A stretch of 64,000 bases of DNA, taken from NCBI GenBank assembly GCA_963755025.1, contig CAVWIH010000014.1, positions 256,001 to 320,000 on the forward strand, read 5' to 3'. The position numbers and the translations under genes are program-made. Shown piece after piece: positions 3,927 through 64,000 of the stretch. The DNA comes from an uncultured Actinomycetes bacterium. GTDB lineage: Bacteria > Actinomycetota > Thermoleophilia > UBA2241. Position 1 is the first letter of the stretch. Every line of letters starts with the position of its first letter. Under the pieces are notes generated by a model. It saw nothing but the letters and a program-made list of their open reading frames with translations. It was not told the origin of the DNA and did not search any database.

Positions 3927-6646
3927 GACGCCACCTTCGCTTTCGCCGCTTCGCTCACGTGCGCTCGCTCCAGGTGGGCTGCGGCCTGTGCGACCGCGGC
4001 GCCCGCGTGGAGGATCGAGTCGGGGATGTCCTTGGCCCCGGCGGCCGCGCCGGCGACGAATACGCCGGGGAGGTTGGTGCGACCGGGGTCGAGGTCTTCG
4101 TCGGCCTCGCCGACGTAGAAGTAGTCGTCGAGCGCGAGGGCGCCGTCGCCGTCGCCGAACAGTTCGGCGACCCCGAGGCTGGGCTGCACGCCGACCGCGA
4201 GGACGACCATGTCGTGCTCGGTCTCGGCGAGCGTGCCGCCGTTCTCGATGTCTTCGTAGCGCAGCACGAGGTTGCCCTCGCCCGTCTCGGTGATGCCCGA
4301 GACACGGCCCTTCACGAAGTTGGCGCCCATGTCTTTGGCCTGCTGGTAGAACTCGTCGTAGCCCTTGCCGACCGAGCGCACGTCGATGTAGTAGACGGTG
4401 ACGTCGGCGAGGGGCAAGGCGCCCATGATGAGCTGGTTCTGCTTGACCGAGTACATGCAGCAGATCTTGGAGCACAGCGGGTTGTCGACGGTCTCGTCGC
4501 GCGACCCGGTGCACATGACGTAGGCGATGTTGTCCGGCACCTTGCCGTCGCTGGGGCGCAGCACCGCGTTGTAGGGCCGCGTCGGCGCCAGCAGGCGGTC
4601 CATCTGCATGCCGGTGATCACGTTCTTGTACCGGCCGTACCCGTACTGCGGCTTGGCGTCGGCCGGGAAGAGCCTGAAGCCGGTGGCCAGCACCACGGTG
4701 CCGACCTCGGCCTCGAACTCGCGCTCGCGGTCGTCGAGGTTGATGGCGTCGGCGGGACAGACGTCGACGCAGGCGTGGCACTCCGAGCAGACGCCGCAGT
4801 CGAGGCAGCGGGCGGCGCCGAGGAACGCTTCGTCCTCGGTCAGTGTGGCCTCGGTCTCGGCGAAGTCGCTCGGCGAGGCGCTCATGGCGGCGCTCGACTC
4901 GAGCGGCTCGCGCCGGTCGTAGACGTCTTGCCGGCGAAGCACCGTGTCCTTGTCGACGACGGCCAGAGCCTCGTCGAAGGCGTCCGCGTCCATCGCGGCG
5001 CCCTGCAGGTAACGGTCGATCATGAAGGCGGCGCGGCGGCCGTGGCCGACGGCGCTGTTGATCATCGTGGGGCCGGTGACCACGTCGCCGGCGGCAAAGA
5101 CGTGCGGCACGGCGGTCTGCAGCGTGGCGGGGTCGGCCTTGAGGGTGTGGTTGCCGTTGGTCTCGAGGCCGAACGCCGCCGTGTCGGCGCCCATGCCGGC
5201 GGCGACGATCACGACGTCGCACTCAAGGGACTTGTGCTGACTCTCGTCGTACTCGGGCCTGAAACGGCCGTCGGGGTCGAAGACGCAGGTGCAGACCTTG
5301 AGGTCGGCGCCCTGCACGTGGCCCTCGCCGGTGAAGTGATCGATGCCCCAGCCGTCGTGCAGGGTGATGCCCTCGGCCCTGGCCTCTGCGACTTCGAAGT
5401 CGTGGGCCGGCATCTCTTCGCAGCATTCCAGGCTGACCTGGTCGACCGACGCGGCGTCGAGGCGGCGCGCCGTGCGCGCCGCGTCGATGGCGACGTTGCC
5501 GCCGCCGACCACCAGCACGCGTTTGCCGGCCACGTCGACGGCTTCGCCGAGCTTGACGGCGCGCAGGAACTCGAGCGCGGTCTGCACGCCGGCGAGCTCC
5601 TCGCCCGGCACGCGCAGACTCACGGACTTGTGGGTGCCCGTCGCCACAAGGACGGCGTCGAAGCCGTCGTTCTTGAGACCCGCGACGTCGTCGACCCGCG
5701 TGGCGGTCGCGATCTCGACACCGATCGCGGTGACGTTGGCGATGTCGTCGTCGATCACGTCGTTGGGCAGCCGGTATGCGGGGATGCCGAGGCGCAGCAT
5801 GCCGCCGGCCTGCGGGGCTGATTCAAAGATCTTGACGCCGTAACCCTTGCGCGCAAGCTGCCAGGCGGCGGTCAGGCCGGCCGGACCCGAGCCCACGACG
5901 GCGACCTTCTTGCCGTTCTGCTCGGGCTGCTCGAGAGGCTTCAGCTCTGCCTGCCCGTAGTGCCGGTCGGCGATGAAGCGCTTGAGCCGGCGAATGGGCA
6001 GCGGGCCCTCGAGCTCGCCGCGCGTGCACTGCTCTTCGCAGGGCGCGTAGCAGGCGCGCCCAAGCGAGCCGACCAGCGGCGTCGTCTCGAGCACCAGGCC
6101 AAAGGCCTCTTCGTATTCGCCGCTGCGCACGCGGGCCACGTAGCCGTGCGCCTTGATGCCCGCGGGGCACTCGTAGGTGCACGGCGAGACGCCGGCGCGG
6201 TCGATGACCGCCTTCTTGGGCACCGCCTGCGGAAAGGCGATGTAGGCGGCGCGGCGCGACACCATGTCGGCGTTGAACTCGTCGGGTACCGCCACGTTGC
6301 AGGCCATCTCGCACAGCCGGCAGCCGGTGCAGGCGGCCTCGTCGATGAACTTGGGCTTCTGGCGGATGGTGGCATGGTAGCCGCCGTTGCCGTCGGCGCG
6401 GATGCCGTCGACCTCGGCGTAGGTGAGCACGTCGATGTTGGGGTGGTGGACGGTGGCGGCCATCTTCGGGGTGGAGATGCAGCTCGCGCAGTCGAGCGTT
6501 GGAAAGACCTTGCTGAGCAGGATCATCTTGCCGCCCACGCTGGCCTGCTTTTCGACGACGAGCACCTTGTAGCCCATGTCGCCGAGCTTGAGGGCCGACT
6601 CCATGCCGCCGATGCCGCTGCCTACTACAAGAGCGTCGTACTTCAT
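3923..6646 (-). CDS. hdrA: HdrA-like flavoprotein with inserted GltD-type NAD(P)H oxidoreductase module (HdrL-like, 907 aa)
   Basis: VVGSGIGG, FPTLDCASC, ferredoxin motif, then SPCTYECP/GRACYAPC/VVGSGPAG/GGGNVAID GltD-like block, then CTGSRD..CSKICC HdrA C-terminal part. Confidence 0.88.
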   Translation of the reverse strand: MKYDALVVGSGIGGMESALKLGDMGYKVLVVEKQASVGGKMILLSKVFPTLDCASCISTPKMAATVHHPNIDVLTYAEVDGIRADGNGGYHATIRQKPKFIDEAACTGCRLCEMACNVAVPDEFNADMVSRRAAYIAFPQAVPKKAVIDRAGVSPCTYECPAGIKAHGYVARVRSGEYEEAFGLVLETTPLVGSLGRACYAPCEEQCTRGELEGPLPIRRLKRFIADRHYGQAELKPLEQPEQNGKKVAVVGSGPAGLTAAWQLARKGYGVKIFESAPQAGGMLRLGIPAYRLPNDVIDDDIANVTAIGVEIATATRVDDVAGLKNDGFDAVLVATGTHKSVSLRVPGEELAGVQTALEFLRAVKLGEAVDVAGKRVLVVGGGNVAIDAARTARRLDAASVDQVSLECCEEMPAHDFEVAEARAEGITLHDGWGIDHFTGEGHVQGADLKVCTCVFDPDGRFRPEYDESQHKSLECDVVIVAAGMGADTAAFGLETNGNHTLKADPATLQTAVPHVFAAGDVVTGPTMINSAVGHGRRAAFMIDRYLQGAAMDADAFDEALAVVDKDTVLRRQDVYDRREPLESSAAMSASPSDFAETEATLTEDEAFLGAARCLDCGVCSECHACVDVCPADAINLDDREREFEAEVGTVVLATGFRLFPADAKPQYGYGRYKNVITGMQMDRLLAPTRPYNAVLRPSDGKVPDNIAYVMCTGSRDETVDNPLCSKICCMYSVKQNQLIMGALPLADVTVYYIDVRSVGKGYDEFYQQAKDMGANFVKGRVSGITETGEGNLVLRYEDIENGGTLAETEHDMVVLAVGVQPSLGVAELFGDGDGALALDDYFYVGEADEDLDPGRTNLPGVFVAGAAAGAKDIPDSILHAGAAVAQAAAHLERAHVSEAAKAKVAS

Positions 6647-7113
6647 GCTGCCGATGCCTTTCGCGACGGGCCCAGCTTGGTCAGGACCGCGGAGAACTCG
6701 TGCATGTAGTTGGTGAAGGGCTCCGCGCAGACCGAGCAGATGGCCGCCATGCGCAGGCGTTGCGGCTCGTAACCGTGGTCGACGAGCAGCGTCTGGGCGG
6801 CGGCCATGATCTGCGAGGTGCGTTCGCTGCAGTCGGACAGGTAGGCGCACTCGTCGCCGTCGGCGGCGACGAAGACGCCGTCGAAGCCCTGCTGCACGGC
6901 GTAGAGCGCCCAGCTCGGCTTGATGCCGCTCGTGCAGGGCACGCTGATCACCATGACGTTGGGCGAGTAGTGCATGTGCGAGCTGCCCGCCAGGTCGATC
7001 CCCGGGTCGGAGATGTTGTTGGTGGACAGCACCAGGATACGGGGCACGAAGCTGTCGTCCCCGCCGTGCGCCGACGCAGCCGCGTCGACCGCCGTTGCGG
7101 CATCGGGCGCCAC
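6643..7113 (-). CDS. mvhD: MvhD/FlpD-like hydrogenase iron-sulfur subunit (atypical cysteines)
   Basis: DLAGSSHMHYSPNV..VPCTSG..GFDGVFVA..ECAY..RLRMAAI; GTG start overlaps the tusA stop. Confidence 0.75.
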   Translation of the reverse strand: MAPDAATAVDAAASAHGGDDSFVPRILVLSTNNISDPGIDLAGSSHMHYSPNVMVISVPCTSGIKPSWALYAVQQGFDGVFVAADGDECAYLSDCSERTSQIMAAAQTLLVDHGYEPQRLRMAAICSVCAEPFTNYMHEFSAVLTKLGPSRKASAA

Positions 7114-7364
7114 TACTTCATCTTCCTGACGTAGAGCTTCATGAAGCCGGGCTCTTCGACGGTGCCGAGGAACTCGTGGCCCATCTTCTTGCACCACGCC
7201 GGGAGGTCTTTCTGCGTGCCCGTGTCGGTGGCCATGACCTCCATGACGCCACCCACGGAGACGCTGGGAATGCCCTTCTTGGCGGCCAGGATGGGGCCTG
7301 GGCACGAGGTGCCTCTGGCGTCGACTACCTTCTCGGCCTGGATCGTGGTCAGGTCTTCTGTCAT
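7113..7364 (-). CDS. tusA: sulfurtransferase TusA family protein
   Basis: VDARGTSCPGP motif, 83 aa, AAGGAGGAG RBS. Confidence 0.93.
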   Translation of the reverse strand: MTEDLTTIQAEKVVDARGTSCPGPILAAKKGIPSVSVGGVMEVMATDTGTQKDLPAWCKKMGHEFLGTVEEPGFMKLYVRKMK

Positions 7365-33627: not shown

Positions 33628-34995
33628 CTACGCGCCGACGCGCAGCGCCGGCCCCTGGGGCCGCGGCGAGCCGGAGAGGCTGAAGGCCAGGATCTGCATG
33701 TCGTCGCTCCAGCGCCCCGCGTAGGCGAGCGCCGCGTCGCGCAGACGCACGGCCACCTCGTGAGGGCCTATGCCGGGGTGATCGCAGAGCGCCTCGGCGA
33801 GGCGGCACTCGCCGAACAGCGCCGTGCCCACGCGCGCCTCGGTGATGCCGTCGGTGAAGAGCGCCACGCAGTCACCCGGCGCCAGCGCGACGTGCCCTCC
33901 GGGGTAGTCACAGGGAAACGTGCCCAGCGGCACGCCGAAGGTGGTCTCCAGAAAGCCGCACGACTGCGGGCGCACGAGCAGCGGTGCGGGGTGACCGGCG
34001 CTGGCGTAGGCGGCTTCGCCGGTGCTCAGGTCGAGCGTCAGCAGAAAGGCCGTCACGAACTGGTCGTCGGGGCCGTTGCGACGCAGCAGCAGCAGCTCGT
34101 TGGTCTTGCGCAGGATGAAGCCGGGCTCGGCGTCGACGAGCGCGAAGCTGCTCACCGCGGTGCGCACGGTCTCGGTCATGCCGGCCGCGCGCACGCCCTT
34201 GCCCTCGACGTCGCCGAGCAGCACGATCACGCGGCCGTCGGGCACGGTGAAGACGTCGTGAAAGTCGCCGCCCACGAGCTCGGGAGCGTGCGCGGTCTCG
34301 GTGACCAGCGCGAGGTCGAGGCCCGCGATGTCGGGCAGGGGATGGATGAAGTTCTCCTGCAGGGTCACGGCGATATGGCGCTGGGCGTGCAGCAGGTCGC
34401 GTTGCGCGCGTTGCTCTGACTCGTGGCGCTCGGCGTTCCACACCGCGCTCGTCGCCTGCAGGGCGAGCAGGCGGAAGACGCGCAACAGATCGCCGGCGAC
34501 CGGCTCGCCGTGGCGGCGCCCCAGCCCGACCAGCAGCCCCTTGAGCCGCACCCCCGCCACCACCAGGGGCGCCGTCCAGGCCTCGTCGTAGCCGTGCCGG
34601 GCGCAAAGCGCTGCGAACTCGGGCGAGCCCAGCGACGCGACGGCCACGAGCCGCGGCCCAGTGCGCTCGAGGTCGAGCGCGGCGATGTCGATGGGGCGCA
34701 GGCGGACGCCCGCGGTGTCGTCGACGATGCCCTCGGTGGCCGCCGCGCGCAGCTCGCCGCCATCGTCGGCCATGACGAACAGGGCGAAGGCCGGCAACCC
34801 GGTGAGGATGCAGCCGTACTCGACCACCTGCGAGGCCGCGCCGTGCAACGACAGCGTCGACGCGAGCAGCGCGCCGAGGTGGATGAGGCCTTCGAGGGTG
34901 CGTGCGTCGGGCACGCCGCTGTTGCCGGGAAGGTCTGACCGGCGGCGCAGCGGACGGACCGGCTGCGGAGCGTCCGACGCGCGACTGTCGCTCAT
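33628..34995 (-). CDS. GAF + SpoIIE/PP2C serine phosphatase
   Basis: VGGDFHD, LGDVEGKG, SAGHP, FTDGITEA, DD motifs. Confidence 0.92.
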   Translation of the reverse strand: MSDSRASDAPQPVRPLRRRSDLPGNSGVPDARTLEGLIHLGALLASTLSLHGAASQVVEYGCILTGLPAFALFVMADDGGELRAAATEGIVDDTAGVRLRPIDIAALDLERTGPRLVAVASLGSPEFAALCARHGYDEAWTAPLVVAGVRLKGLLVGLGRRHGEPVAGDLLRVFRLLALQATSAVWNAERHESEQRAQRDLLHAQRHIAVTLQENFIHPLPDIAGLDLALVTETAHAPELVGGDFHDVFTVPDGRVIVLLGDVEGKGVRAAGMTETVRTAVSSFALVDAEPGFILRKTNELLLLRRNGPDDQFVTAFLLTLDLSTGEAAYASAGHPAPLLVRPQSCGFLETTFGVPLGTFPCDYPGGHVALAPGDCVALFTDGITEARVGTALFGECRLAEALCDHPGIGPHEVAVRLRDAALAYAGRWSDDMQILAFSLSGSPRPQGPALRVGA

Positions 34996-35011
34996 GCGAC
35001 CCGCGGTCCCT

Positions 35012-36421
35012 CTAGGACGAGCCGCGGCCGGTGAGTTCGGCGAAGGCCTCGCCGAGCACGAACCCGTCGGAGGTGATCGAGAACTGGCGGATCGACGGGT
35101 CGTGATCGCTCGCCCTGGTCTTGATCACCGAGATGGCGCGCCTGATCTGCGAGTCGGCGCGCACGTAGCTGAGCAGCAGCACGTTGTCGGACATGTGGCT
35201 GATGCCCTGACGGGAGAGCACGGTGGTGGCGAACAGGTCGCCGATCTCGTGGGTCATGAAGATCGAGACGCCGTTGACGGCCATGGCCTGGGTGAGCGAG
35301 TACATGAAGTCGCGAAAGCGGCCGCCGCTCGGCGAGGCGGCCTGCAGGTCGTTGACGCTGTCGATGAGCACGCGCTGGGAGCCCTCGTGCAGAGCCCGGC
35401 GCGACACCCGGCTCACGAACTCGTCGATGTAGATGTCGACCGGCGAGACGTACATGAGCGTGAGCATACCCGCGGCGATGGCCTCCTCGATATCCCAGCC
35501 GAAGCCCTTGGCGATGCGCTGCAGCTGGGTGGGGTTCTCCTGCATGGTGGCGATCAGGCCTCTCTCGCCCATCTCGATGCCCTTGAAGATGAAGTGCAGG
35601 CCGAGCAGCGTCTTGCCGCTGCCGGGAGGGCCGAAAGCCAGCGTCGAGCTGCCCTTCCAGAGGCCCGCTGAGAGCATGGCGTCGAGGGCCGGCACGCCGA
35701 TGGCGCTGCGCGCCCCGGCGAGCTCGTAGTCGACGGGCACGTCGGGCGTAGTGAGGCGCGGGAAGAGCTCGATGCCGTCGCTGCCTATGCGAAAGGCGTG
35801 CTCGCCGCCGAAGAAGGCGCTGCCGCGCAGCTTGGTCACGCGCAGATAGCGCACATCGCCCACCCCGACCTTGTCGAGGACGAGCTCGATGATGCTGTCG
35901 GTCACGGCGAACTCGGGCAGCGCGGGGATCTCGTCGGCGCCGTACTCGCCCACCCAGAACGAGGTGATGGCCAGCGACGACAGCACTGAGGTCAGCACCG
36001 AGAGGCTGGCGCGGAACTCCTGCTCGGAGTCGGTGAAGGAGTGCAGCGCCTTGAAGCTGTCGATCACCAGGAACGCCGGCTGGTAGCGTTTGATGAGCCC
36101 GACCATCTCGTCGATCGCGGCGACGAGACCGCGCGTGCGCAGGGGCTCGCTCAGCTCCTGATAGATGATCGCCTCGCCGATCTGGGCCGGATCGAAGTAC
36201 GCGAACTCCTGCACGTAGCGCAACATGCGGTCGAGCGGCTCGGAGACCGTGCTGATGTAAAGCACGGGGCGGGCGGCCGAGGCGTTGTGAAAGGCGATGC
36301 TCTGGGCGAGCACGGTCTTGCCGGTGCCCGGCATCCCCATGAGCAGGTTGGTGGAGTTCGCCGGGAACCCGCCGCCCAGGATCTGATCGAGGGCTTCGTT
36401 GCCGCTTTCGATGCGTCTCAT
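35012..36421 (-). CDS. KaiC-like double-domain ATPase
   Basis: Two RecA domains (GMPGTGKT, GPPGSGKT), VIDS, KLRGS, KTRASDHD. Confidence 0.9.
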   Translation of the reverse strand: MRRIESGNEALDQILGGGFPANSTNLLMGMPGTGKTVLAQSIAFHNASAARPVLYISTVSEPLDRMLRYVQEFAYFDPAQIGEAIIYQELSEPLRTRGLVAAIDEMVGLIKRYQPAFLVIDSFKALHSFTDSEQEFRASLSVLTSVLSSLAITSFWVGEYGADEIPALPEFAVTDSIIELVLDKVGVGDVRYLRVTKLRGSAFFGGEHAFRIGSDGIELFPRLTTPDVPVDYELAGARSAIGVPALDAMLSAGLWKGSSTLAFGPPGSGKTLLGLHFIFKGIEMGERGLIATMQENPTQLQRIAKGFGWDIEEAIAAGMLTLMYVSPVDIYIDEFVSRVSRRALHEGSQRVLIDSVNDLQAASPSGGRFRDFMYSLTQAMAVNGVSIFMTHEIGDLFATTVLSRQGISHMSDNVLLLSYVRADSQIRRAISVIKTRASDHDPSIRQFSITSDGFVLGEAFAELTGRGSS

Positions 36422-54439: not shown

Positions 54440-55852
54440 ATGGCCGCTCTCGACCTGCCAGTCGACCTTGCCCAGGAGACCCGGAGCCACCTGGCCAACG
54501 TCGTCGACAACCTGCAGCTGATCGCCGACCTGGGTTACGGCGACGTAGCCCTGGTCGTGCCCGACCAGACGGGCGCGCTCGTCGTGATCGCCGACTGCCG
54601 GCCGAGCACCGCCGCGACCCCGTTCGCCACGTCGCGCGTGGGCCGCGCGCTCACGGCGAGCGAGTCGCCCGAGGCCCTGGGAGCCCTGGAGCGGGGCGCG
54701 CCCGTCGAGGGCGAGCACGAGCGTCGCGCCCACGACATGCGCTACGCGACGCTGGCCTACCCGATCGGCGAGCCCGTCCCGTTCGCCGCCGTCGTGCGCA
54801 GCCTCGCGCGGCACGCCGAGTCGGCTCCCGGAGCCATGGAGAAGGCCTTCATGCGGGCCGCCGAGGCGCTCTTGCGAGCGCTCGCCGCCGGCCCCATCGT
54901 CGACCTGCGCACAGGCGGCGGCTTCGCCACGACACGCCACGCGGGCGACGGCGTCATGCAGGTCGCCCCCACCGGACGCATCGCCTACGCCTCGCCCAAC
55001 GCGGTCAGCATCATGCGGCTGGCCGGCGTCGAGGGCCGCGTCACCGGCATGAGGGCCTCGGCGCTGCCCGGCGGCGTGCTCGGCATCTCACCGACCTTCG
55101 GCGCGCGCGGCGCCATCGCGGTGCAGGCCGAGGTCGCCCAGCGCGTGCTCGACTACCGCTCCATCGCCCTCGACTACGGCACGCTCGTGCTGGTCGAAGA
55201 CCTGACCGAGGCGCGCCGCCGCGAGCGCGAGATCATGGTCAAGCAGGCCACCATCCGCGAGGTGCACCACCGCGTCAAGAACAACCTGCAGACGATCGCC
55301 TCGCTGCTGCGCGTGCACGCGCGACGCACCACGAGCGACGAAGCGCGCAAGGCCCTGGCCGACGCCACCGACCGCGTCACCTCGATGGCCGTCGTGCACG
55401 ACCTGCTGGCGGGCTCCGACGAGGAGCGCGTCGACTTCGCCCAGGCGGCGCGCACCGTCGTCGACCTCGTGCGCCGCGGTCTCGTGGGGGAGGAGTCGCG
55501 CGTCACCGTCTCGGTGAGCGGCGCGACCGGCCAGGTCGACGCGCGCACCGCCACCTCGCTCGCCCTGACGATCGCCGAGCTCGTGCACAACGCCCTCGAG
55601 CACGCCTACGCCCCGGGCGCCGCGGGCAGCGTCGCGCTCGTCCTGCAGCGCCTGCCGCACGAGCTCGAGCTCACCGTGAGCGACGACGGCAGCGGCCTGC
55701 CGGCCGGCTTCGACCCCGCCCGCTCGAGCAACCTCGGCCTCGCCATCGTGCGCGCCCTGGTCGAAGACGACCTGCAGGGCACGCTGCACATGCGCGGCGG
55801 CCCGGGCGGCACGGTCGTCACCGTACGCGTGCCTCTCGCCGGCCCCGAGTAG
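54440..55852 (+). CDS. PdtaS/EutW-like cytosolic sensor histidine kinase (HisKA_2)
   Basis: LQLIADLGYGD N-domain, IREVHHRVKNNLQ H-box, ELVHNA, DDGSG, SNLGL; TATACT -10 box 6 nt before ATG suggests a leaderless mRNA. Confidence 0.92.
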   Translation: MAALDLPVDLAQETRSHLANVVDNLQLIADLGYGDVALVVPDQTGALVVIADCRPSTAATPFATSRVGRALTASESPEALGALERGAPVEGEHERRAHDMRYATLAYPIGEPVPFAAVVRSLARHAESAPGAMEKAFMRAAEALLRALAAGPIVDLRTGGGFATTRHAGDGVMQVAPTGRIAYASPNAVSIMRLAGVEGRVTGMRASALPGGVLGISPTFGARGAIAVQAEVAQRVLDYRSIALDYGTLVLVEDLTEARRREREIMVKQATIREVHHRVKNNLQTIASLLRVHARRTTSDEARKALADATDRVTSMAVVHDLLAGSDEERVDFAQAARTVVDLVRRGLVGEESRVTVSVSGATGQVDARTATSLALTIAELVHNALEHAYAPGAAGSVALVLQRLPHELELTVSDDGSGLPAGFDPARSSNLGLAIVRALVEDDLQGTLHMRGGPGGTVVTVRVPLAGPE

Positions 55853-55896
55853 CGGTACGCTGGCACGGGCCGCCGGCGGGTGGTATCCTGCCGGCA

Positions 55897-55978
55897 CGGC
55901 ACAGTGACGTGCCGCACCAGCCATATCGGTGAGCAACGATGCTCGTCCAGCCCTTGCGGGGCCGGGCGGGCGTTTTTT
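55897..55978 (+). ncRNA. ANTAR-target dual-hairpin leader with overlapping intrinsic terminator
   Basis: P1 CGGCAC-AGTGAC-GTGCCG, P2 GAGC-AACGAT-GCTC (hexaloops with A1 and G4); P2 3' arm begins a GC stem followed by TTTTTT; TGGTATCCT extended -10 at 55881-55889. Confidence 0.85.
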
Positions 55979-55998
55979 CGTTGGGAGGCACCCAGGCC

Positions 55999-57287
55999 AT
56001 GACGTACGACCCGCTGCTCGACCGCATGCCCACGACGCGGACGCCCGGTCGCGGCGCCCGCGCCGACGAGCGGCCCGCGTACCGCGAAGAGGCATCGTTC
56101 AAGATCCCCGGCGGCTGCGGCCTCATGGGCGTCTGCGACGAGTCGGGCGCCGCGCTGCCCGCCGAGCTCGCCGTGCGCGCCATGGCCGTGCAGCGCGACC
56201 GCGGCAACGGCCTGGGCGGCGGTTTTGCCGGCTACGGCATCTACCCCGAGCTCGCCGAGCTCTTCTGCTTTCACCTCATGTTCCACGACACGAAGGCCAA
56301 GGACGAGGTCGAGGCCTTCCTCGCACAGGGCTTCGAGGTCGAGCGCGCCGAGCCCATCCCCACGCGCCCCGTGGCCGGCATCGACGACCCGCCGCTGCTG
56401 TGGCGCTACTTCGTGAGCCCGCGCGCGGCGTCGCTCGAGGGCGGCGCGCTGACCGCCGACGACGTCGTGGTCGCGGCCGTCATGCACGTCAACGCGGCCG
56501 TCGACGGCGCCTTCGTGGCCTCGTCGGGCAAGAACATGGGGGCCTTCAAGGGCGTCGGCTTTCCCGAGGAGATCGCCCACTTCTACAGGCTCGAGGAGTA
56601 CGCCGGCCACACCTGGCTCGGGCACAGCCGGTTTCCCACCAACACCCCCGGCTGGTGGGGCGGCGCGCACCCCTTCACGCTGCTCGACTGGTCGGTCGTG
56701 CACAACGGCGAGATCTCGAGCTACGGCATCAACCGGCGCTACCTCGAACAGTTCGGCTACCGCTGCACGCTGGGCACCGACACCGAGGTGGCGGCCTACC
56801 TGTTCGACCTGCTGCTGCGCCGCCACGGACTGCCGCTGGAGCTCGCCTGCAAGGCGCTCGCCAGCCCGCTGTGGAGCGAGATCGACCGTCTGGGCAAGAG
56901 CGACCAGGCGCTGCTGCGCGCCCTGCGCTGCGTGTACGGTTCGGCCATGCTGAACGGCCCGTTCGCCATCGTGCTGGGCTTCGCCGGCGGCATGATGGCC
57001 CTGAACGACCGCATCAAGCTGCGCCCGCTGGTGGCCGCCCGTCGCGGCTCGATCGTCATGGTGGCCTCAGAGGAGAGCGCCATCTGCGAGGTGCTCGAGG
57101 CGCCCGACGCGATCTGGTCGCCGCGCGCCGGCGAGCCCGTGATCGCTCGCGTAGCGAGCTCCGCCGGCGCGCCGGCCGCCACCCCCACCGTCGCGGCGCC
57201 CGCGAGCGGCGCGGCGCCCGCGAGCGGCGTGGCGCCCGCGAGCGGCGCGGTGGCAGCGGCGCGGCCGCCGTCGCCGCGGTGGGCTAG
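55999..57287 (+). CDS. glutamine amidotransferase class II (GltB1-type glutamate synthase domain 1); probable frameshift in the 3' repeat region
   Basis: GGCGLMG Ntn cysteine, RGNGLGGGF, HSRFPTN, HNGE, GTDTE; a TAG at 57285-57287 in another frame abuts the next ATG. Confidence 0.88.
57193..57246. repeat. 3 x 18-bp tandem repeat
   Basis: Unit GCGGCGCCCGCGAGCGGC. Confidence 0.8.
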
Positions 57288-58811
57288 ATGCCGCCGAGCA
57301 TGGTGCAGCCCGAGTTCACGGTCGCCATCGACGACCGGCGCTGCAGCCGCTGCGGAGGCTGCGTGGCGCAGTGCGGGTGGGGCGTCGTTGCCTTCGACGA
57401 GCGCCCCGTGCCCGACGACGCCAGGTGTCGCGCCTGCCACCGCTGCGTGACGTACTGCCCAAGCCACGCGATCACGATCAAGAGGAGCGAGCTTGCCTAC
57501 GGCGGCAACCAGTTCTGGGCGGCGCCGCTGCGGCGCGCGATCTGGCGCCAGGCAGAGACCGGCGGCGTCATGCTCGCCAGCACCGGCAACGACGGACCCT
57601 ACCCGAGCATCTTCGACCACCTCGTGCTCGATGCCTGTCAGATCACCAACCCGTCGATCGACCCGCTGCGCGAGCCCATGGAGCTGCGCACCTACCTGGG
57701 CGGCCAGCCCGAAGCGGTGGCCGTGGAGCCCGACGACGCGGGCGGCTACCGCCTGAAGGCCGGCGCCGCGGCGAACGTGGGCGCGGGCCACGCCATCAAA
57801 CTCGACACGCCGATCATCTTCTCGGCCATGAGCTACGGCTCGGTCTCGCTCAACGTGCACAAGTCGCTGGCCATGGCGGCCGAGCGCTGCGGCATCGTGA
57901 TGAACTGTGGCGAGGGCGGCCTGCACGCCGACCTGCACCCCCTCAAGGACCGCGTGATCGTGCAGGTGGCGTCGGGGCGCTTCGGCGTCGACCTCGACTA
58001 CCTGAAGCGCGGCGTCGCGGTCGAGATCAAAGTCGGCCAGGGCGCCAAGCCCGGAGTCGGCGGCCACCTGCCCGGCGAGAAGACCGGCGGCGACGTGGCC
58101 ACCACGCGCATGATCCCGCAGGGCTCCGACGCCCTCTCGCCGGCCCCGCACCACGACGTCTACTCCATCGAGGACCTGCGGCAGCTCATCTACTCGATCA
58201 AGGAGACCACGGGCTACAAGCCGGTCGGCGTGAAGATCGCCGCCGTGCACAACGTGGCCGCCATCGCGTCGGGCGTGGTGCGCGCCGGCGCCGACTACGT
58301 CTTTCTCGACGGCTTTCGCGGGGGCACCGGCGCGGCGCCGATGGTGATCCGCGATCACGTCGGCATTCCCCTCGAGATCGCCATCGCCGTGGTCGACCAG
58401 CGCCTGCGCGACGAGGGCATCCGCCAGCGCGCCTCGATCATCGCCGCCGGCTCGATACGCTCCGCGGCCGACATGGCCAAAGCCATCGCCCTGGGCGCCG
58501 ACGTCGTGGCCATCGGCTCGGCGGCCCTGGTGGCGCTGGGCTGCCACCTGTGCGGCGGCTGCCACACGAGCGGCTGCAGCTGGGGCCTGACCACCCACAA
58601 GCCCGAGCTCGCCAGGCGGCTCGACCCCGAGTGGGGCGCCGAGCGCCTCACCAACCTGATCGACGCCTGGAGCCACGAGCTGAAGGAGGTCCTCGGCGCC
58701 CTGGGGGTCAACGCCATCGAGTCGCTGCGCGGCAGCCGCGAACGCCTGCGCGGCGTGGGGCTCGACGCCCAGACCCTCGAGATCCTCGGCGTCAAGCCGG
58801 CCGGACTCTAG
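57288..58811 (+). CDS. archaeal-type FMN-binding glutamate synthase subunit with N-terminal ferredoxin (GltB2)
   Basis: 2x CxxCxxC, SAMSYG, QVASGRFG, KVGQGAKPGVGGHLPG, DGFRGGTGAAP, CHLCGGCH..C. Confidence 0.93.
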   Translation: MPPSMVQPEFTVAIDDRRCSRCGGCVAQCGWGVVAFDERPVPDDARCRACHRCVTYCPSHAITIKRSELAYGGNQFWAAPLRRAIWRQAETGGVMLASTGNDGPYPSIFDHLVLDACQITNPSIDPLREPMELRTYLGGQPEAVAVEPDDAGGYRLKAGAAANVGAGHAIKLDTPIIFSAMSYGSVSLNVHKSLAMAAERCGIVMNCGEGGLHADLHPLKDRVIVQVASGRFGVDLDYLKRGVAVEIKVGQGAKPGVGGHLPGEKTGGDVATTRMIPQGSDALSPAPHHDVYSIEDLRQLIYSIKETTGYKPVGVKIAAVHNVAAIASGVVRAGADYVFLDGFRGGTGAAPMVIRDHVGIPLEIAIAVVDQRLRDEGIRQRASIIAAGSIRSAADMAKAIALGADVVAIGSAALVALGCHLCGGCHTSGCSWGLTTHKPELARRLDPEWGAERLTNLIDAWSHELKEVLGALGVNAIESLRGSRERLRGVGLDAQTLEILGVKPAGL

Positions 58812-58825
58812 GAGAGGCGGGCACG

Positions 58826-59653
58826 ATGGCGTCGGATCCCGTTCCCGCTCCGGTCACCCAGGTCGTCGGCCACCTGCGCACGGCGCCGACGCTGAAGATG
58901 GCCGGCGACACGGCGACCGTCGACTGCCGCGGCGTCTACTACCGCTACGTCAACGAAGCGGTGCGCGGGGCGTTCGAGCAGGGCGCCCGCACCGTGAAGC
59001 TCGCAAACGTCATGGGCCAGCGCTACATCGGGACCGGCCTCCAGGGCGCCGACAAGCGCATCGAGGTGCACGGCACGCCGGGTCAGGACGCGGCCATGTT
59101 CATGGACGGCCCCACCCTCGAGGTCTTCGGCAACGCCCAGGACGGCCTGGGCAACACGATGAGCGCCGGGCGGGTCGTGGTGCACGGCAGCGCCGGCGAC
59201 GTGCTGGGTTACGGCATGCGCGGCGGCCGGGTGTTCGTCGCCGGTGACGTGGGCTACCGGGTGGGCATCCACATGAAGGCCCGCGAGGAGCTGCGGCCGA
59301 TCGTGGTCTGCGGCGGCAAGGCCCGCGACTTCTTCGGCGAGTACATGGCGGGAGGCCTGCTCGTGCTGCTCGGCCTGGACTCGGCCTTCGAGGGGCCGCT
59401 CGCCGGCGGCTACCTGGGCGCCGGCATGCACGGCGGCGAGATCTACCTGCGTGGCGAGGTCGAGCCCTGGAGCTGCGGCGCCGACGTCACGAGCGCCCCG
59501 GCGAGCGACGACGAGATGGGCGCCCTCGCGCCCGTGCTGGCCGACTTCTGCGCCGCCGTGGGGCGCGACGTCGCCGGCGTGCTCTCGGCGCGCTTCACGC
59601 GCATCGCGCCGGCCAGCAGCCGCCCCTACAGCGGGCGCTACGTGGGGCTGTAG
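58826..59653 (+). CDS. GXGXG domain protein (GltB3-type glutamate synthase domain 3)
   Basis: GQRYIG, GNAQDG, GYGMRGG, GEYMAGG, GMHGG. Confidence 0.92.
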   Translation: MASDPVPAPVTQVVGHLRTAPTLKMAGDTATVDCRGVYYRYVNEAVRGAFEQGARTVKLANVMGQRYIGTGLQGADKRIEVHGTPGQDAAMFMDGPTLEVFGNAQDGLGNTMSAGRVVVHGSAGDVLGYGMRGGRVFVAGDVGYRVGIHMKAREELRPIVVCGGKARDFFGEYMAGGLLVLLGLDSAFEGPLAGGYLGAGMHGGEIYLRGEVEPWSCGADVTSAPASDDEMGALAPVLADFCAAVGRDVAGVLSARFTRIAPASSRPYSGRYVGL

Positions 59654-59687
59654 GCCGGCCCGCGGGCCGTCGCCGGCCGCGGTTCGC

Positions 59688-60917
59688 TTACCTGCCGGGC
59701 TCCTCCCGCCCGCCCGGCGACCTCGACGCGACGGCCGCGATCGCCTCGGCGAGCGCCGCCAGCCCCTGGGCCAGCTCCGCCGCCGTGATGGTGAGCGCCG
59801 GGAACACGCGCACCCCGACGCCCTGTGTCTGGCGCACGAAGGTCTTGCGCGCCAGGCACTCGGCGGCCACCGCGCCGGCGGCGGACTCGTCGCGAAACTC
59901 CACGAGCAGCAGCAGGCCGGCGCCGCGTACGTCGGTGACGAGGTCGGGCCAGGCCGCGCGCCAGCGCTCCATCTCGGCGAGCGCCTCGCGGCCGCGCGCC
60001 GCCACCAGCGCCGGCGCGTCGATCTCGATCAGGTGCGAGATCACCGCGCAGGCCACCGCGCAGGCGAGCGGGTTGCCGCAGTAGGTGCCGCCGTGGTCGC
60101 CGAGCTCGAGCCTGCGCGAGACGGCTTCGGTCATGGCGAAGGCGCCCAGGGGGAACCCGCCGGCGATGCCCTTGGCCATGGTGAGCAGGTCCGGCGCGGC
60201 GCCGGGTGGGGTCGCAAAGAACGGGCCCGTGCGACAGAAGCCCGTCTGCACCTCGTCGACGATCAGCAAGGCGCCGCTCGCATGGCAGAGCTCGGCCACG
60301 CCGCGCAGGTAGCCGTCGGGCGGACGGCGCACGCCGCCCTCGCCCTGGACGGGCTCGACGATGACCGCTGCCACTGCCGGGTCGAGCGCGCCGGCGAGGG
60401 CGTCGAGGTCGCCGTAGGGCACGAACCGGTAGCCCGGCATCTGCGGCGCGAACTTGTCGCGGTGGCGCGCCTGCCCGGTCGCCGAGACCATGCTGATCGT
60501 GCGCCCGTGAAAGCTGCCCTCGCACGCCACCACGTCGCGCCGGCCGGTGGCCTTGCGGGCGAGCTTCACGGCGGCGTCGTTGGCCTCGGCGCCGCTGTTG
60601 GTGAAGAAGATGCGCTCGAGGCCCGCCGGCAGCAGGCCGCAGAGCAGCGTCAGCAGCCGCGCCCGCGCCGGCGAGTAGGTGAGGCCGGAGTCGGGGTTCT
60701 GCAGGATGAGCGCGCCCTGCTCGGCGAGCGCCGCCGCGATGGCGGGGTGCGCGTGGCCGATCGACGTGACGCCCCAGCCCGCGGTGAGGTCGAGGTAGCG
60801 CTCGCCCTCTTCGTCCCACACGACGACGCCCTCGCCGCGCACTATGGAGATCGGCGTCTTGGCGAAGAAGGGCGGCATGTGGGCGTTCTCTACGGCGATC
60901 GTCTGCTGGCTGGCCAT
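59688..60917 (-). CDS. argD: acetylornithine aminotransferase (class III)
   Basis: FFTNSGAEAN, SFHGRT, EPVQGEGG, DEVQTG, MAKGIAGG, HGGTYCGNP. Confidence 0.85.
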   Translation of the reverse strand: MASQQTIAVENAHMPPFFAKTPISIVRGEGVVVWDEEGERYLDLTAGWGVTSIGHAHPAIAAALAEQGALILQNPDSGLTYSPARARLLTLLCGLLPAGLERIFFTNSGAEANDAAVKLARKATGRRDVVACEGSFHGRTISMVSATGQARHRDKFAPQMPGYRFVPYGDLDALAGALDPAVAAVIVEPVQGEGGVRRPPDGYLRGVAELCHASGALLIVDEVQTGFCRTGPFFATPPGAAPDLLTMAKGIAGGFPLGAFAMTEAVSRRLELGDHGGTYCGNPLACAVACAVISHLIEIDAPALVAARGREALAEMERWRAAWPDLVTDVRGAGLLLLVEFRDESAAGAVAAECLARKTFVRQTQGVGVRVFPALTITAAELAQGLAALAEAIAAVASRSPGGREEPGR

Positions 60918-61012
60918 CGGTTCCCTCTCGATTCGTGTCCGGTCTGCCGGCCGGCCTTGTCGTGGCGATCGCCCGCCGCCAGGTCTGCCGCCCGCCGGCA
61001 GCCGCGGGCGCG

Positions 61013-61060
61013 CCGGCGTACCCGGATATCGGCGTACCTGGTCACCGGCGTACCTGGTTA
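61013..61060. repeat. 3 x 16-bp tandem repeat
   Basis: CCGGCGTACCCGGATA / TCGGCGTACCTGGTCA / CCGGCGTACCTGGTTA. Confidence 0.7.
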
Positions 61061-61624
61061 CAGGGCGTCGCCGGCCGTGATGATCGCCTCGGCCACCTCG
61101 CGCAGGGTCTTGCGCCGGTCCATGGCGACCTTCTGCAGCCGGCGAAAGGCGTCGGCCTCGGTGAGCCCGCGCGCCATGAGCAGGCCCTTGGCCTGGTCGA
61201 CGACCTTGCGGGTCTCGAGACGCTCGGTCAGGTCGCCCACCTCGCGCGCCAGCAGGGCGGCCTCGGCGAAGCGCGCGACCGCCACCTCCATGGCCGGCAC
61301 GATGTCGTTGCGCGAGAAGGGCTTGACGACGTAGCCCATGGCGCCGGCGCGTGTGGCTTGCTCGACCTGCGCGGGCTGCGAGAACGCCGTGAGGATCACC
61401 ACGGGCGCGATCGCTTCGGCGCTGATGGCGGCCGTCGCCTCGATGCCGTTCACGCCCGGCATGTTGATGTCCATGAAGACCACGTCGGGCCGGCACGAGC
61501 GCGCCAAGGCGATCGCCTCGGCGCCGTCGCGCGCCTCGGCCACCACCTCGTGGCCGCCGTCTATGAGCATCTCGCGCAGGTCCATGCGGATCAGCGCCTC
61601 GTCTTCGGCGATCAGCACTCGCAA
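61058..61624 (-). CDS. ANTAR-domain response regulator (PdtaR/EutV-like)
   Basis: RVLIAEDEALIRMDL..FMDINMPG..YVVKPF receiver; ETRKVVDQAKGLLM..EADAFRRLQKVAMD ANTAR. Confidence 0.95.
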   Translation of the reverse strand: MRVLIAEDEALIRMDLREMLIDGGHEVVAEARDGAEAIALARSCRPDVVFMDINMPGVNGIEATAAISAEAIAPVVILTAFSQPAQVEQATRAGAMGYVVKPFSRNDIVPAMEVAVARFAEAALLAREVGDLTERLETRKVVDQAKGLLMARGLTEADAFRRLQKVAMDRRKTLREVAEAIITAGDAL

Positions 61625-61742
61625 GGCCGGGGTCCTCTTCGTCGTCTCCGTGTCGTCGCGCCCCGGTCGTCGCTCGCCGGCGACCGGGGCCCGGCACGCT
61701 TGTAGCTTACCGACGCGCGTGGCGTCGCGCCTGCGTTTTCGC

Positions 61743-62078
61743 CTACATCTCGAAACCGAGGGAGCTGAGGCTGCAGAACACGTGGGCCGTCTTGGCATGC
61801 CCGCGGCGCTGCGGGGCTATGCGGAAGGTCGACCAGTGCGGCAGGGCGACGATGTCGGCTCCGCCGCCGTCGCGCAGGTCGAGCGCGCCCGACTCGAGCA
61901 CGCCGTTGTCGAACACACCGGCGAATTCCTGATGATGGATCTCCACCATCTCGAGCTCGCCGAGGATGTCGGTGAACCAGAGTTGGATGCGCTTCACGTC
62001 GTGTTCGGCGACCTGAAGGCGGATGCTGGCCAGGAGCTCATTCTTCCTGTGTCTTCCTGGTGGCCATGGTCCGCGCAC
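61743..62078 (-). CDS. stand-alone glutamine synthetase N-terminal (beta-grasp) domain; start uncertain, possibly a remnant
   Basis: DVKRIQLWFTDILGEL..DIVALPHWSTFRIAP..AHVFC resembles the GlnA N-domain; TAG stop right after it. Confidence 0.65.
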   Translation of the reverse strand: MRGPWPPGRHRKNELLASIRLQVAEHDVKRIQLWFTDILGELEMVEIHHQEFAGVFDNGVLESGALDLRDGGGADIVALPHWSTFRIAPQRRGHAKTAHVFCSLSSLGFEM

Positions 62079-62148
62079 GTGGCGCGCTGGCAGATGAGCG
62101 AGGAGGGTTCGGGGCCCGGGGTCTCCTTTCTGCGCCGCGCCGGAAACG

Positions 62149-62220
62149 AAAAAACTCCCCGGGCCGCGAGGGCCAGGGGAGCGTCGTTGCTCCGGCAGGT
62201 GGCGGCACGCCGTTGTGCCG
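62149..62220 (-). ncRNA. second ANTAR-target dual-hairpin leader with overlapping terminator
   Basis: Minus strand: P1 CGGCAC-AACGGC-GTGCCG, P2 GGAGC-AACGAC-GCTCC, terminator CTCCCCTGGCC..GGCCCGGGGAG-TTTTTT; TGCTAGCAT extended -10 upstream. Confidence 0.87.
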
Positions 62221-62263
62221 ATGCCGCATGCTAGCACGCCGGTTCGGGGGCGCGCAATCGTGA

Positions 62264-62352
62264 GCCTGGGCCGGCACGCGCATGGGCCGGCACGCGCCCG
62301 CCTAGGCCGGCACGCGCCCGCATGGACCGGTACGCGCCTGGGCCGGCACGCG
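62264..62352. repeat. degenerate 16-20-bp intergenic tandem repeats
   Basis: About 5 copies of C(C/A)TGGGCCGGCACGCG. Confidence 0.65.
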
Positions 62353-62353
62353 C

Positions 62354-63505
62354 CTACGCCGGCCGCACCGGGTCGGCGCCACCGGACTGCCGGGACTGCT
62401 GCGGCGCGCGGCCGGGCGCGAGCGGGATACTGAACGTGATGGTCGTGCCCGCGCCGTCGTTGCTTGCGGCGGCGATCCGCCCGCCGTGGCTTTCGACCAG
62501 GCTCCTGGCGATCGCCAGCCCCAAGCCGCTGCCCTTGGAATCGGCCGACTTTGAGAAGCGGTCGAACAGCCCGGAGAGCTCCTCGGCGGCGATGCCGCGG
62601 CCGTTGTCGCTCACCGTGAACACCGCGTCGCCGCCCGAGAGCGCCACGGCCACGACCACGGCGCCGCCGGCCGGCGTGTAGCGCACGGCGTTGGCCACCA
62701 GGTTGTCGAGCACCTGGCGCAGCCGCACCGGGTCGACGTCGAGCTCGGGCACACCCTCGACGCCGGCCGTCAGCGTCACCCCACGGGCGGCTGCCGTCGC
62801 CTGAAAGGCGCGCAGGGTCTCGTCGACGAGGCGCCGCGGATCGGTGGCCTCGCGGTGCAGCCGCAAGGCGCCCGCCTGGGCCAGGGAAAGGGTCTGCAGG
62901 TCCTCGAGCAGGCGAGCCATGAGCTACGTCTCGGCCAGCACGGGGGTGAGGTGGTCGTCGTCCCGTGGGTAGAGGCCGTCGAGCATGCCCTCGACGTCGC
63001 CGCGGATGACCGACAGCGGTGTGCGCAGCTCGTGGGCGATCTCGGCCAGCAACGCGCGCCGCTGCTCCTCGTTCTCCTGCAGCCGCTGGGCCATCTCGTT
63101 GAATGCCCCGGCGAGCTGCCGGACCTCGCTCGAGCCGCGCGCCTCGACCCGCGCGCCGTAGTCGCCCCCGGCCACCCTGCTGGCGGCGTCCATGACGTCG
63201 CCGATGGGCGCCGCCGTGCGGCGCAACACGCGGCCGATCACCAGGGCGCCCACCACGACGAGGGCCACTACGGGGAACAGCAGGAAGAACGGGTGCGGGC
63301 CGCCGCGCCAGCCGCCGCCGCGCGGCCGCAAAGTCATCGCGTTCCAGATGACGCCCAGAGCGATCAGCAGCGCAAAGAAGGCGAGCAGCAGCAAGACGAC
63401 GCGCCGCACGAAGCGGCGGCGCAGGCGGTGCCAGTCGCCGCCGCTCGGCGGCCAAGGCTCGCCTTCGGGCCACCAGGGCGGAGAGCGCCGGCCGGCCGGA
63501 CTCAT
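62354..63505 (-). CDS. HAMP sensor histidine kinase (BaeS-like) interrupted by an in-frame TAG at 62924-62926
   Basis: 2 TM, HAMP, IAHELRTPL; after TAG-CTC the same frame continues with NLVANAVRY, DNGRG, GSGLGL. Confidence 0.88.
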
Positions 63506-64000
63506 CGCTCTTCGGCGAACCGGTAGCCGACGCCGTAGACCGTCTCGATGTACGAGGGCGCGCCCTCGCGAGCCTCGAGCTTGCGGCGGATGTTCTTCAC
63601 GTGGGCGTCGATCGCCCGCTCGTAGGAGTCGAACGCGACGCCGCGCACCGCTTCGAGAAGCTGGCCGCGGGTCAGCACGCGCCCGGGCCGTCGCGCCAGG
63701 GCGACGAGCAGCTGGAACTCGGTCGGCGTCAGGTCGACCCGCTGCCCGGCGGCGCTCACGCGCATGGCGGGCACGTCGATGACCAAATCGGCGGCACGCA
63801 CGACGTCGGGCGCCTGCTGGGTGCCGTCGGTGCGGCGCAGCACGGCGCGCACCCGGGCGACGAGCTCCTTGGGGCTGAACGGCTTCACCATGTAGTCGTC
63901 GGCGCCCAGCTCGAGGCCGACGATACGGTCGGCTTCGTCGCCGCGCGCCGTGAGGACGATGATCGGCATGGCCGAGAACGCCCGCACCGTGCGCGTCACG
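63502..64000 (-). CDS. OmpR family response regulator (5' end outside the window)
   Basis: LELGADDYMVKPF, LTPTEF, IETVYGVGYRF. Confidence 0.93.
   Translation of the reverse strand, partial: VTRTVRAFSAMPIIVLTARGDEADRIVGLELGADDYMVKPFSPKELVARVRAVLRRTDGTQQAPDVVRAADLVIDVPAMRVSAAGQRVDLTPTEFQLLVALARRPGRVLTRGQLLEAVRGVAFDSYERAIDAHVKNIRRKLEAREGAPSYIETVYGVGYRFAEER

Follow-up and report, generated by a model that had tools for sequence, protein, structure and literature searches.

The locus described here lies on contig CAVWIH010000014.1 of an uncultured Actinomycetes bacterium, within the 64,000-nucleotide (nt) stretch that was analyzed as a whole and that we call the window (G+C content 70.7%). It brings together a PdtaS-like histidine kinase, a PdtaR-like response regulator with an ANTAR output domain, and two RNA leaders, each with dual hexaloop hairpins and a terminator. 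One leader stands in front of a split glutamate synthase operon and the other in front of genes for a stand-alone glutamine-synthetase (GS) N-terminal domain protein, the regulator and an aminotransferase. An earlier reading made from the sequence alone had interpreted this ensemble as an ANTAR antitermination circuit for nitrogen assimilation; the parts of it that sequence analysis could check came out as predicted, and the interpretation is supported to that extent.

Two leaders and a PdtaS/PdtaR-type pair in the window

Leader 1 (55897–55978, + strand) consists of two hexaloop hairpins, P1 and P2, followed by a U-tract terminator. P1 (55897–55914) closes the loop AGTGAC with a 6-bp stem (CGGCAC/AGTGAC/GTGCCG; −9.5 kcal/mol alone), and P2 (55928–55947; −6.2 kcal/mol alone) carries the loop AACGAT at 55935–55940. 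The intrinsic terminator (stem 55941–55971, T6 at 55973–55978) has the sequence GCTCG in common with the 3′ arm of P2, so that terminator and P2 are mutually exclusive. Upstream lies an extended −10 box, TGGTATCCT (55881–55889, +), which was read by eye and whose TGnTAnnnT pattern is conserved in relatives; downstream, GGGAGG (55983–55988) precedes an ATG at 55999.

Leader 2 (62220–62149, − strand) likewise combines hexaloop hairpins with a U-tract terminator. Its extended −10 box, TGCTAGCAT (62236–62228, −), is placed 7 nt 5′ of P1, with the spacing seen in leader 1. P1 (CGGCAC/AACGGC/GTGCCG, 62220–62203, −) has the loop AACGGC and P2 (GGAGC/AACGAC/GCTCC, 62193–62178, −; −7.3 kcal/mol alone) the loop AACGAC, and the terminator (62182–62155, T6 at 62154–62149, −) again overlaps the 3′ arm of P2. 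All four hexaloops of the window have A at position 1 and G at position 4. The stems measure 6 bp for P1 and 5–7 bp for P2 in both leaders, and the linker between them is 13 nt long in leader 1 and 9 nt in leader 2. The sequence-only reading had located the two leaders and described their anatomy in just this way, and its identical P1 stems (CGGCAC/GTGCCG) were confirmed; in calling the leaders near-identical it went too far, as 59 of 82/72 nt, or 72%, agree, and the differences fall in the linkers, three of the four loops and the terminator interiors.

Unconstrained minimum-free-energy folding gave the terminator form for both leaders, with terminator energies of about −23.9 kcal/mol for leader 1 and about −21.9 kcal/mol for leader 2. 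At −21.4 to −24.1 kcal/mol over all calculations, against −6.2 to −7.3 kcal/mol, the terminator is thus much stronger than P2 alone, and termination should therefore be the default state. A scan for the sigma-70 consensus found no full promoter at the leaders, which makes the conserved extended −10 box the sole basis for the promoters proposed there.

We compared the window with 100 dinucleotide shuffles of its sequence using a custom script. Dual hairpins with ANNGNN hexaloops were not unusual by themselves (9 in the window; shuffle mean 5.85, maximum 12). When a run of T5 or longer was required within 45 nt, two matches were left in the window, exactly leaders 1 and 2, against a shuffle mean of 0.01 (maximum 1). 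Rfam searched at E ≤ 10 over 55800–62400 returned four weak and irrelevant matches, none of them at the leaders, and a covariance model of the leaders (see below) found no third copy at E ≤ 1, either on the 5′ side of the aminotransferase gene or elsewhere in the window.

The kinase gene (54440–55852, +) encodes a cytoplasmic protein of 470 amino acids (aa) with matches to Pfam GAF_PdtaS (1.7e-20), HisKA_2 (6.5e-23) and HATPase_c (3.4e-13) and to the PdtaS sensor region in PDB 2ykf (E 2.3e-23). With a cytoplasmic GAF-PAS sensor, HisKA_2 with its HH motif (EVHHRVKNNLQ in the translation) and HATPase_c, it has the PdtaS-type architecture. The response regulator (61058–61624, −; TTG start, 188 aa) matches Pfam Response_reg (3.8e-28) and ANTAR (1e-21) and aligns over its full length with Rv1626 in PDB 1s8n (E 8.4e-60, residues 2–182 against 15–196). 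Its FMDINMP aligns with the receiver site IMDVKMP of Rv1626, and the aspartate of this motif is presumably the phospho-acceptor. Relatives of the regulator are 188–189 aa long and 70–97% identical, a tightly conserved large family with one member from a named Thermoleophilia metagenome-assembled genome (MAG).

Upstream of leader 2 lies a second kinase gene (62354 to approximately 63500, −; HAMP, HisKA and HATPase_c), itself preceded by an OmpR-type regulator gene (63502–63999); because it adjoins a regulator of its own, the HAMP kinase is not an obvious partner of the ANTAR regulator. Its reading frame contains a TAG at 62924–62926 (−) between the HisKA and ATPase parts (...VLAET, stop, LMARLLEDL...), so that the gene may be a pseudogene, unless the TAG is a read error or is read through. 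Between the stop codon of this gene and the leader 2 promoter, 62264–62363 is made up of five to six tandem copies of a 16–20-nt unit, GCCTGGGCCGGCACGC on the + strand; read on the leader strand, each unit contains GTGCCGG, similar to the 3′ arm of P1. Three GGCACC-type repeats lie 5′ of the regulator gene in L001, the nearest relative of the window locus.

Leaders, gene order and target genes in related loci

A search of genome contigs with the regulator gave 80 loci, of which 30 encode relatives at ≥49% identity (22 close and 8 more distant) and 50 are unrelated receiver-domain matches. A simple motif script run on all of them detected leaders in 14 of the 30 regulator loci and also 15 weak matches, their stems 4 bp long, among the unrelated loci (12 of the 50, mostly AT-rich ones); on account of these weak matches it was replaced by a covariance model. 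As Rfam has no usable ANTAR model, the model, R1, was built here from 16 training rows, namely the two window leaders and 14 leaders picked by the script, which required stems.

R1 matched leader 1 at 55891–55984 (69.4 bits) and leader 2 at 62142–62226 (66.7 bits), and in total it found 23 leaders at 43–87 bits, in the window and in 18 of the 22 close loci; 7 of the 23 lie outside the training set. The best score in the 50 unrelated loci (762,709 nt) was 21.9 bits. A 17.2-bit match in L020, with neither the hexaloop pattern nor a −10 box, was rejected as a leader. The sequence-only reading had made its case depend on leaders being conserved in related genomes, and they are, though L001 lacks both. 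The loci concerned belong mostly to MAGs labelled Thermoleophilia, Coriobacteriia or Eubacteriales. Among the four close loci in which R1 found no leader (L001, L007, L015 and L026), the contigs of L007 and L026 stop less than 800 nt past the regulator gene and that of L015 stops 2.5 kb past it; leaders elsewhere lie up to 4.4 kb downstream of this gene. L001, with ample flanks, is a true negative. R1 gave no leader in the 8 distant PdtaR loci (Propionibacteriaceae, Segniliparus, Cutibacterium and one Chloroflexota MAG), and no kinase gene was present within 10 kb in 8 regulator loci of Propionibacteriaceae, Segniliparus and Chloroflexota.

Both A1 and G4 of the P2 loop are present in 23 of 23 leaders, as is G4 of the P1 loop, whose A1 is kept in 18. 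Every one of the 23 has a terminator overlapping the 3′ arm of P2, with energies of −20.7 to −27.0 kcal/mol against −5.5 to −7.3 kcal/mol for P2, and the inner stems of these terminators differ widely; an overlapping terminator with freely varying inner stems is a stronger structural argument than pair covariation. TGnTAnnnT stands at a constant distance 5′ of P1 in 20 of the 23, the three leaders without it being second, transcript-internal copies in L002, L003 and L004. In the related loci all copies are on the strand of the regulator gene, which lies within 5 kb in all 18 that bear a leader.

Two further features accompany subsets of the leaders. Between the tandem leaders of L002 (9337–9474), L003 (10273–10404) and the matching stretch of L004 runs an open reading frame (ORF) of 44–46 aa with a strong GGAGGTG Shine-Dalgarno sequence and a common GW(S/N)PTSMP start; it has no Pfam match and no counterpart in the window. 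A direct repeat, GTTTC-n6-GTTTC, occupies the −35 position of 13 of the 23 leaders, about 42–44 nt before the model start (e.g., L005 at about 14424 and L017 at about 14950), and is confined to the more distant clade, being absent from the window and from L002–L004. Its reverse complement resembles the GaAAc half-sites of actinobacterial GlnR boxes; if the repeat were a GlnR-type box, there would be two layers of nitrogen control.

The usual order in the relatives, all on one strand, is pdtaS, pdtaR, a gap of 0–4 kb, the leader, a gene for a CCG/4Fe-4S HdrD-like protein, the GATase, Fer4-FMN and GXGXG genes of glutamate synthase and finally a GS-type gene. The kinase gene lies directly upstream of the regulator gene and in the same orientation in 21 of the 30 loci, and on the basis of this adjacency the PdtaS-like protein is most likely the partner that would phosphorylate the ANTAR regulator. 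The Pfam, 2ykf and 1s8n matches bear out the naming of the pair in the sequence-only reading. The leader is downstream of the regulator gene in the 18 related loci. It is followed on the same strand by the GATase, FMN and GXGXG genes in 16 of them, while two further loci end inside the CCG gene, and in each of the 16 related loci scanned the first gene behind the leader is the CCG gene. At its end the operon has a full-length glutamine synthetase in L009, L011, L014 and L019 and a protein with the GS N-terminal domain only (GS-N) in L003 (15680–15992) and L004 (16279–16590); the GS-N protein thus fills the slot of the full-length enzyme of more distant relatives.

Compared with this order, the window locus is rearranged. 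Its kinase gene now looks onto leader 1, the GATase gene comes directly behind this leader without an intervening CCG gene, and the GS-N gene has moved to the 5′ side of the regulator gene, behind the second leader. The leader-proximal CCG protein of the relatives, of about 450 aa with two CCG domains and a 4Fe-4S dicluster, is HdrD/GlpC-like (e.g., L002 9586–11025); its gene is missing from the glt operon of the window, and positions 606–7117 of the window encode another CCG protein along with a large flavoprotein resembling HdrA/GltD. L009 and L010 are two contigs of one MAG with near-duplicate pdtaS-pdtaR-leader-glt loci, and their tblastn matches come in many frame-shifted pieces, which probably reflect assembly errors.

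L001 has a regulator 93–97% identical to that of the window and about 91% DNA identity over 7 kb. Set against it, the window contains an extra block at 55854–59726, comprising leader 1 and the glt operon, as a clean 3.9-kb indel between the stop codons of pdtaS and the aminotransferase gene. On the other side, homology ends at 61738, just past the GS-N stop codon (61745–61743). L001 shares the conserved stretch 61738–61625, preceded there by a different gene and by no leader, and its aminotransferase gene likewise follows the regulator gene. The L001 DNA upstream of the regulator region shows 69% identity to window positions 33811–34383, inside a SpoIIE-domain gene (33628–35124).

Leader 1 precedes separate genes for a class-II glutamine amidotransferase subunit (55999–57450, +; 483 aa; Pfam GATase_2, GATase_6 and GATase_7), a subunit with ferredoxin and FMN domains (57447–58811, +, start approximate; Glu_synthase 1.4e-127 and Fer4, relatives aligning from residue 1) and a GXGXG-domain subunit (58808–59653, +, start approximate; GXGXG 2.1e-30, homologues in related loci). 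The three form one operon, the arrangement of split, archaeal-type glutamate synthases, and homologues of the amidotransferase subunit at 64–75% identity follow the leader in 16 loci. The predicted enzyme would convert glutamine and 2-oxoglutarate to glutamate, an activity to which the full-length GS gene in the same operon of four relatives lends support. Class-II amidotransferases normally use an N-terminal cysteine; here, within 55999–56150, about 39 residues precede the GGCGLMG motif, and this extension, common to the relatives, could be a propeptide or the mark of an inactive form. In the 3′ part of the same gene, an 18-nt unit, CGCGGCGCCCGCGAGCGG, is repeated 3.3 times with a 95% match (57192–57250).

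Behind leader 2 comes the GS-N gene (61743–62078, −, start uncertain), for a stand-alone beta-grasp domain that matches Pfam Gln-synt_N at 35.6 bits (cutoff 33.4). Its relatives are five metagenome proteins of 101–138 aa, and since it is conserved in them at 68–92% identity, the protein looks like a maintained truncated form. A complex prediction for the regulator and the GS-N protein, made without controls, scored 0.00 and weighs neither for nor against their binding. The regulator gene follows after 118 nt and, after a further 140 nt, the aminotransferase gene (59688–60917, −; 409 aa; Aminotran_3 4.8e-98), whose membership in the operon is uncertain and whose product, on its profile matches, is a class-III aminotransferase of the broad acetylornithine/ornithine type and nothing more specific. 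The 140-nt spacer contains three tandem 16-nt units, CCGGCGTACCTGGTCA on the + strand (61013–61058), directly past the stop codon of the regulator gene. No glnA, amtB or glnB was present among the 38 window ORFs scanned.

Probable antitermination and its alternatives

Sequence and comparison establish how the RNAs are built and conserved, how their terminators overlap P2, and which gene families are present in which order. Taken together, these findings make it probable that the locus combines two transcription attenuators of the ANTAR type with a two-component pair operating them by antitermination. For RNA binding, its dependence on phosphorylation, the direction of control and feedback, we reason from the EutV/EutW paradigm, in whose working model phosphorylation induces dimerization and RNA binding of EutV (Ramesh 2012, PMC3369931). 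Each leader would be transcribed from its own extended −10 promoter and, by default, would fold into the strong U-tract terminator, stopping transcription before the genes. On phosphorylation by the PdtaS-like kinase, for which nitrogen status is our guess of a signal from the target genes, the PdtaR-like regulator would dimerize and bind P1 and P2 through A1 and G4 of the hexaloops. The bound regulator would keep the weak P2 closed and so deprive the terminator of its 5′ arm, allowing RNA polymerase to read on. In this way the three genes of the split glutamate synthase would come under the control of leader 1 and the GS-N gene under that of leader 2, with readthrough from leader 2 adding to the expression of the regulator and perhaps of the aminotransferase.

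Several observations count against this interpretation or narrow it. Rfam, which lacks a curated model of this kind, gave no match at its gathering thresholds anywhere in the window. The P1 loop has G at position 1 in 5 of the 23 leaders. Although 99.6% of the stem cells are paired over the 23 leaders, the alignment was fitted to the model, 16 of its rows being training rows and 14 of those chosen by the stem-demanding script. Double changes occur in 5 of the 11 P1/P2 pairs and the other 6 are invariant (the inner four of P2 and two of P1), so that covariation support is limited to the outer pairs. In the window, 5 kb separate the kinase gene from the regulator gene, and the two are on opposite strands. 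The kinase, moreover, keeps just the second cysteine of the GAF dicysteine motif, its "viadCRP" aligning with "CvaqCRP" and the first cysteine being replaced by V. In Mycobacterium tuberculosis PdtaS these cysteines, C53 and C57, serve copper and nitric oxide sensing (PMC8131098); the dicysteine is a ligand-response feature of that species and not part of the family as Pfam defines it.

On the side of the target genes, NCBIfam GltB scores of 25–254 bits fall short of the cutoff of 1047, which we attribute to the glutamate synthase being split, and the ArgD models score below their cutoffs (NF002874 346 against 457 bits; TIGR00707 344.2 against 410.05), leaving an ArgD identity unsecured. The sequence-only reading was right to place a split glutamate synthase behind a leader, as the Pfam domains and the 16 loci bear out, and could not be followed in its "argD", whether in the name, given these scores, or in the place in the operon, given the 140-nt gap. 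Within 62039–62078 (−), the GS-N gene has AGG where its five homologues have ATG (M-K/R/N-NELLAS...), the nearest in-frame start is a GTG at 62078, 12 codons upstream and lacking a Shine-Dalgarno sequence, and a 9-codon ATG ORF (62067–62038, −) ends in an overlapping ATGA; the gene may be decaying or unusually translated. Finally, both leaders, the GS-N gene and the glt operon are missing at the corresponding place in L001, and for that reason the circuit is either dispensable here or has moved.

Feedback on the regulator gene through leader 2 is possible, as the − strand between 62149 and 59688 holds no terminator-like site and readthrough into the regulator gene is therefore plausible. It is weakened, however, by the 118-nt stretch in front of the regulator gene, which probably contains a promoter of its own, since it is conserved in L001 with neither a leader nor a GS-N gene upstream; the positive feedback proposed by the sequence-only reading was accordingly overstated. 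The same conservation argues for a different wiring of genuine attenuators bound by the local regulator, in which the regulator gene has its own promoter and no meaningful feedback, the aminotransferase gene is separate and leader 2 controls just the GS-N gene or its decaying remnant. The 140-nt gap with its tandem repeat, the GS-N gene lacking the canonical start of its homologues and the leader being downstream, not upstream, of the regulator gene in 18 related loci all fit such a wiring, whereas the lack of a terminator-like site down to the aminotransferase gene and the listing of leaders 5′ of ANTAR regulator genes for several Firmicutes (Ramesh 2012, Table S2) do not; on balance we think it unlikely, if worth serious consideration.

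Antitermination is also not the only way in which ANTAR-bound hairpins may act. The regulator could repress translation through them, as in mycobacteria, or be titrated by them as decoys, as with the trans-acting RNAs of Enterococcus and Listeria. Few actinobacterial ANTAR RNAs are reported to have terminators and about 37% to overlap the ribosome-binding site or start codon (Mehta and Ramesh 2021), and an RNA that binds and inhibits PdtaR has been described (Buglino 2021). At this locus, however, the hairpins of leader 1 end at least 36 nt 5′ of the Shine-Dalgarno sequence of the first gene, the genes behind the two leaders are in the sense orientation and a strong terminator overlaps P2 in every one of the 23 copies, which makes either mode of action very unlikely. 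That the structures are plain terminators belonging to the preceding kinase genes (pdtaS on the + strand, the HAMP kinase gene on the −), with hexaloops arising by chance in GC-rich DNA, is hardly credible: both do lie 100–200 nt downstream of a same-strand kinase gene, and dual hexaloop hairpins by themselves are as frequent in the shuffles, but both leaders, and 20 of the 23 copies, have an extended −10 box past the upstream stop codon and ahead of P1, the loop letters and the P1/P2 architecture persist over 23 copies with variable terminator interiors, glutamate synthase genes accompany the leader in 16 loci, and hexaloops combined with a T-run number 2 against 0.01 expected.

Known ANTAR systems and a possible nitrogen role for PdtaS/PdtaR

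The antitermination reading has its closest parallels in Firmicutes. There, ANTAR-terminator RNAs cluster on nitrogen genes, with leaders before glutamate-synthase, glutamine-synthetase and regulator genes (Ramesh 2012, PMC3369931); the glutamine synthetase/glutamate synthase (GS/GOGAT) cases in Table S2 of that study include Candidatus Desulforudis (Daud_2028), Carboxydothermus hydrogenoformans, Desulfotomaculum spp. and Alkaliphilus metalliredigens. The sequence-only reading was thus too strong in its claim to newness, a circuit of this type having been listed for Firmicutes in 2012. The GS-GOGAT cluster of Clostridium thermocellum (Clo1313_2030–2036) also has an ANTAR regulator, and nitR of C. 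acetobutylicum is cited alongside it (PMC4676874). Like these clusters, the window locus has a dual-hexaloop RNA overlapping a terminator 5′ of amidotransferase/glutamate synthase, GS and regulator genes, and more than one leader per locus; as with Amet_3386/3385 of Alkaliphilus, the gene immediately preceding that of the regulator is of the GS type, here GS-N. It differs in phylum, with relatives labelled Thermoleophilia and other Actinomycetota, in having a PdtaS-type kinase gene in the neighborhood, no histidine kinase being mentioned for the Firmicute entries of Table S2, and in the reduction of the GS gene to its N-terminal domain. The entries of that table as given include one actinobacterium, with non-nitrogen genes, and mention no histidine kinase (PMC3369931). 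The Firmicute GS/GOGAT cases, for their part, come from bioinformatic prediction or from correlations in expression.

EutV/EutW of Enterococcus faecalis offers the same combination of a receiver-ANTAR regulator, a kinase, two A1/G4 hexaloop hairpins and a terminator overlapping P2. Its targets, in contrast, are ethanolamine-utilization genes, EutW is not a PdtaS-type GAF/PAS kinase, and our regulator matches the EutV structures 6wsh/6ww6 more weakly than Rv1626 (E 2e-39 against 8.4e-60). The two proteins themselves resemble PdtaS/PdtaR of M. tuberculosis (Rv3220c/Rv1626), the regulator aligning at full length and the kinase sharing the GAF_PdtaS/HisKA_2 architecture and the sensor region, although one of the two sensing cysteines is gone. 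In M. tuberculosis and Streptomyces, however, the two genes are described as orphans, their RNA partners as acting on translation or as decoys and not through terminators, and the targets are not nitrogen-assimilation genes. NasR, NasS-NasT and AmiC-AmiR share the ANTAR output domain, leader antitermination (which is predicted here) and nitrogen-related targets, in their case nitrate assimilation or amidase genes. What controls these regulators is a ligand-binding domain or a partner protein that sequesters them, in place of the histidine kinase proposed for the window pair.

For actinobacteria, terminator-coupled ANTAR RNAs are reported as few, and one Conexibacter woesei match is listed, 5′ of a hypothetical protein gene (Mehta and Ramesh 2021). 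The term "glutamate synthase" does not occur in the text or supplements of that study, and we found no title or abstract linking PdtaS/PdtaR to glutamate synthase in the literature on the pair with nitrogen, glutamate, terminator or glutamine. The kind of circuit and the regulatory principle are thus known already; what is new is the phylum, along with a PdtaS/PdtaR-type pair being physically linked to GS/GOGAT leaders that are terminator-coupled, and the protein consisting of GS-N only.

A bolder idea is that the GS-N protein, far from being a dead remnant, is a working part of the circuit, feeding glutamine or GS status to PdtaS/PdtaR or to glutamate synthase; it would have replaced the full-length GS of the ANTAR-controlled GS-GOGAT operon in Thermoleophilia and, in the window, moved before the regulator gene with a leader of its own. 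Taken with the conserved pdtaS-pdtaR-leader-GOGAT order, this would make nitrogen assimilation the ancestral job of PdtaS/PdtaR. A clostridial paper reportedly describes a glnA-nitR-gltAB cluster, and the order of the GS-N and regulator genes in the window echoes that of glnA and nitR. We regard the idea as a long shot; if it were true, the PdtaS/PdtaR family would gain a new small protein cofactor.

In mycobacteria and Streptomyces, whose pdtaS and pdtaR genes are orphans, debate continues over which RNAs PdtaS/PdtaR target directly and what the pair does physiologically. In the window, as in 18 related loci of uncultured Actinomycetota-type MAGs, the pair has a terminator-coupled ANTAR leader and a GS/GOGAT-type operon as neighbors, extending the pattern of ANTAR control on nitrogen genes described in 2012 to a phylum in which terminator-coupled ANTAR RNAs are reportedly rare. 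The locus thereby offers a clean and testable model for the role of the PdtaS/PdtaR family and suggests a link of this family to nitrogen assimilation.

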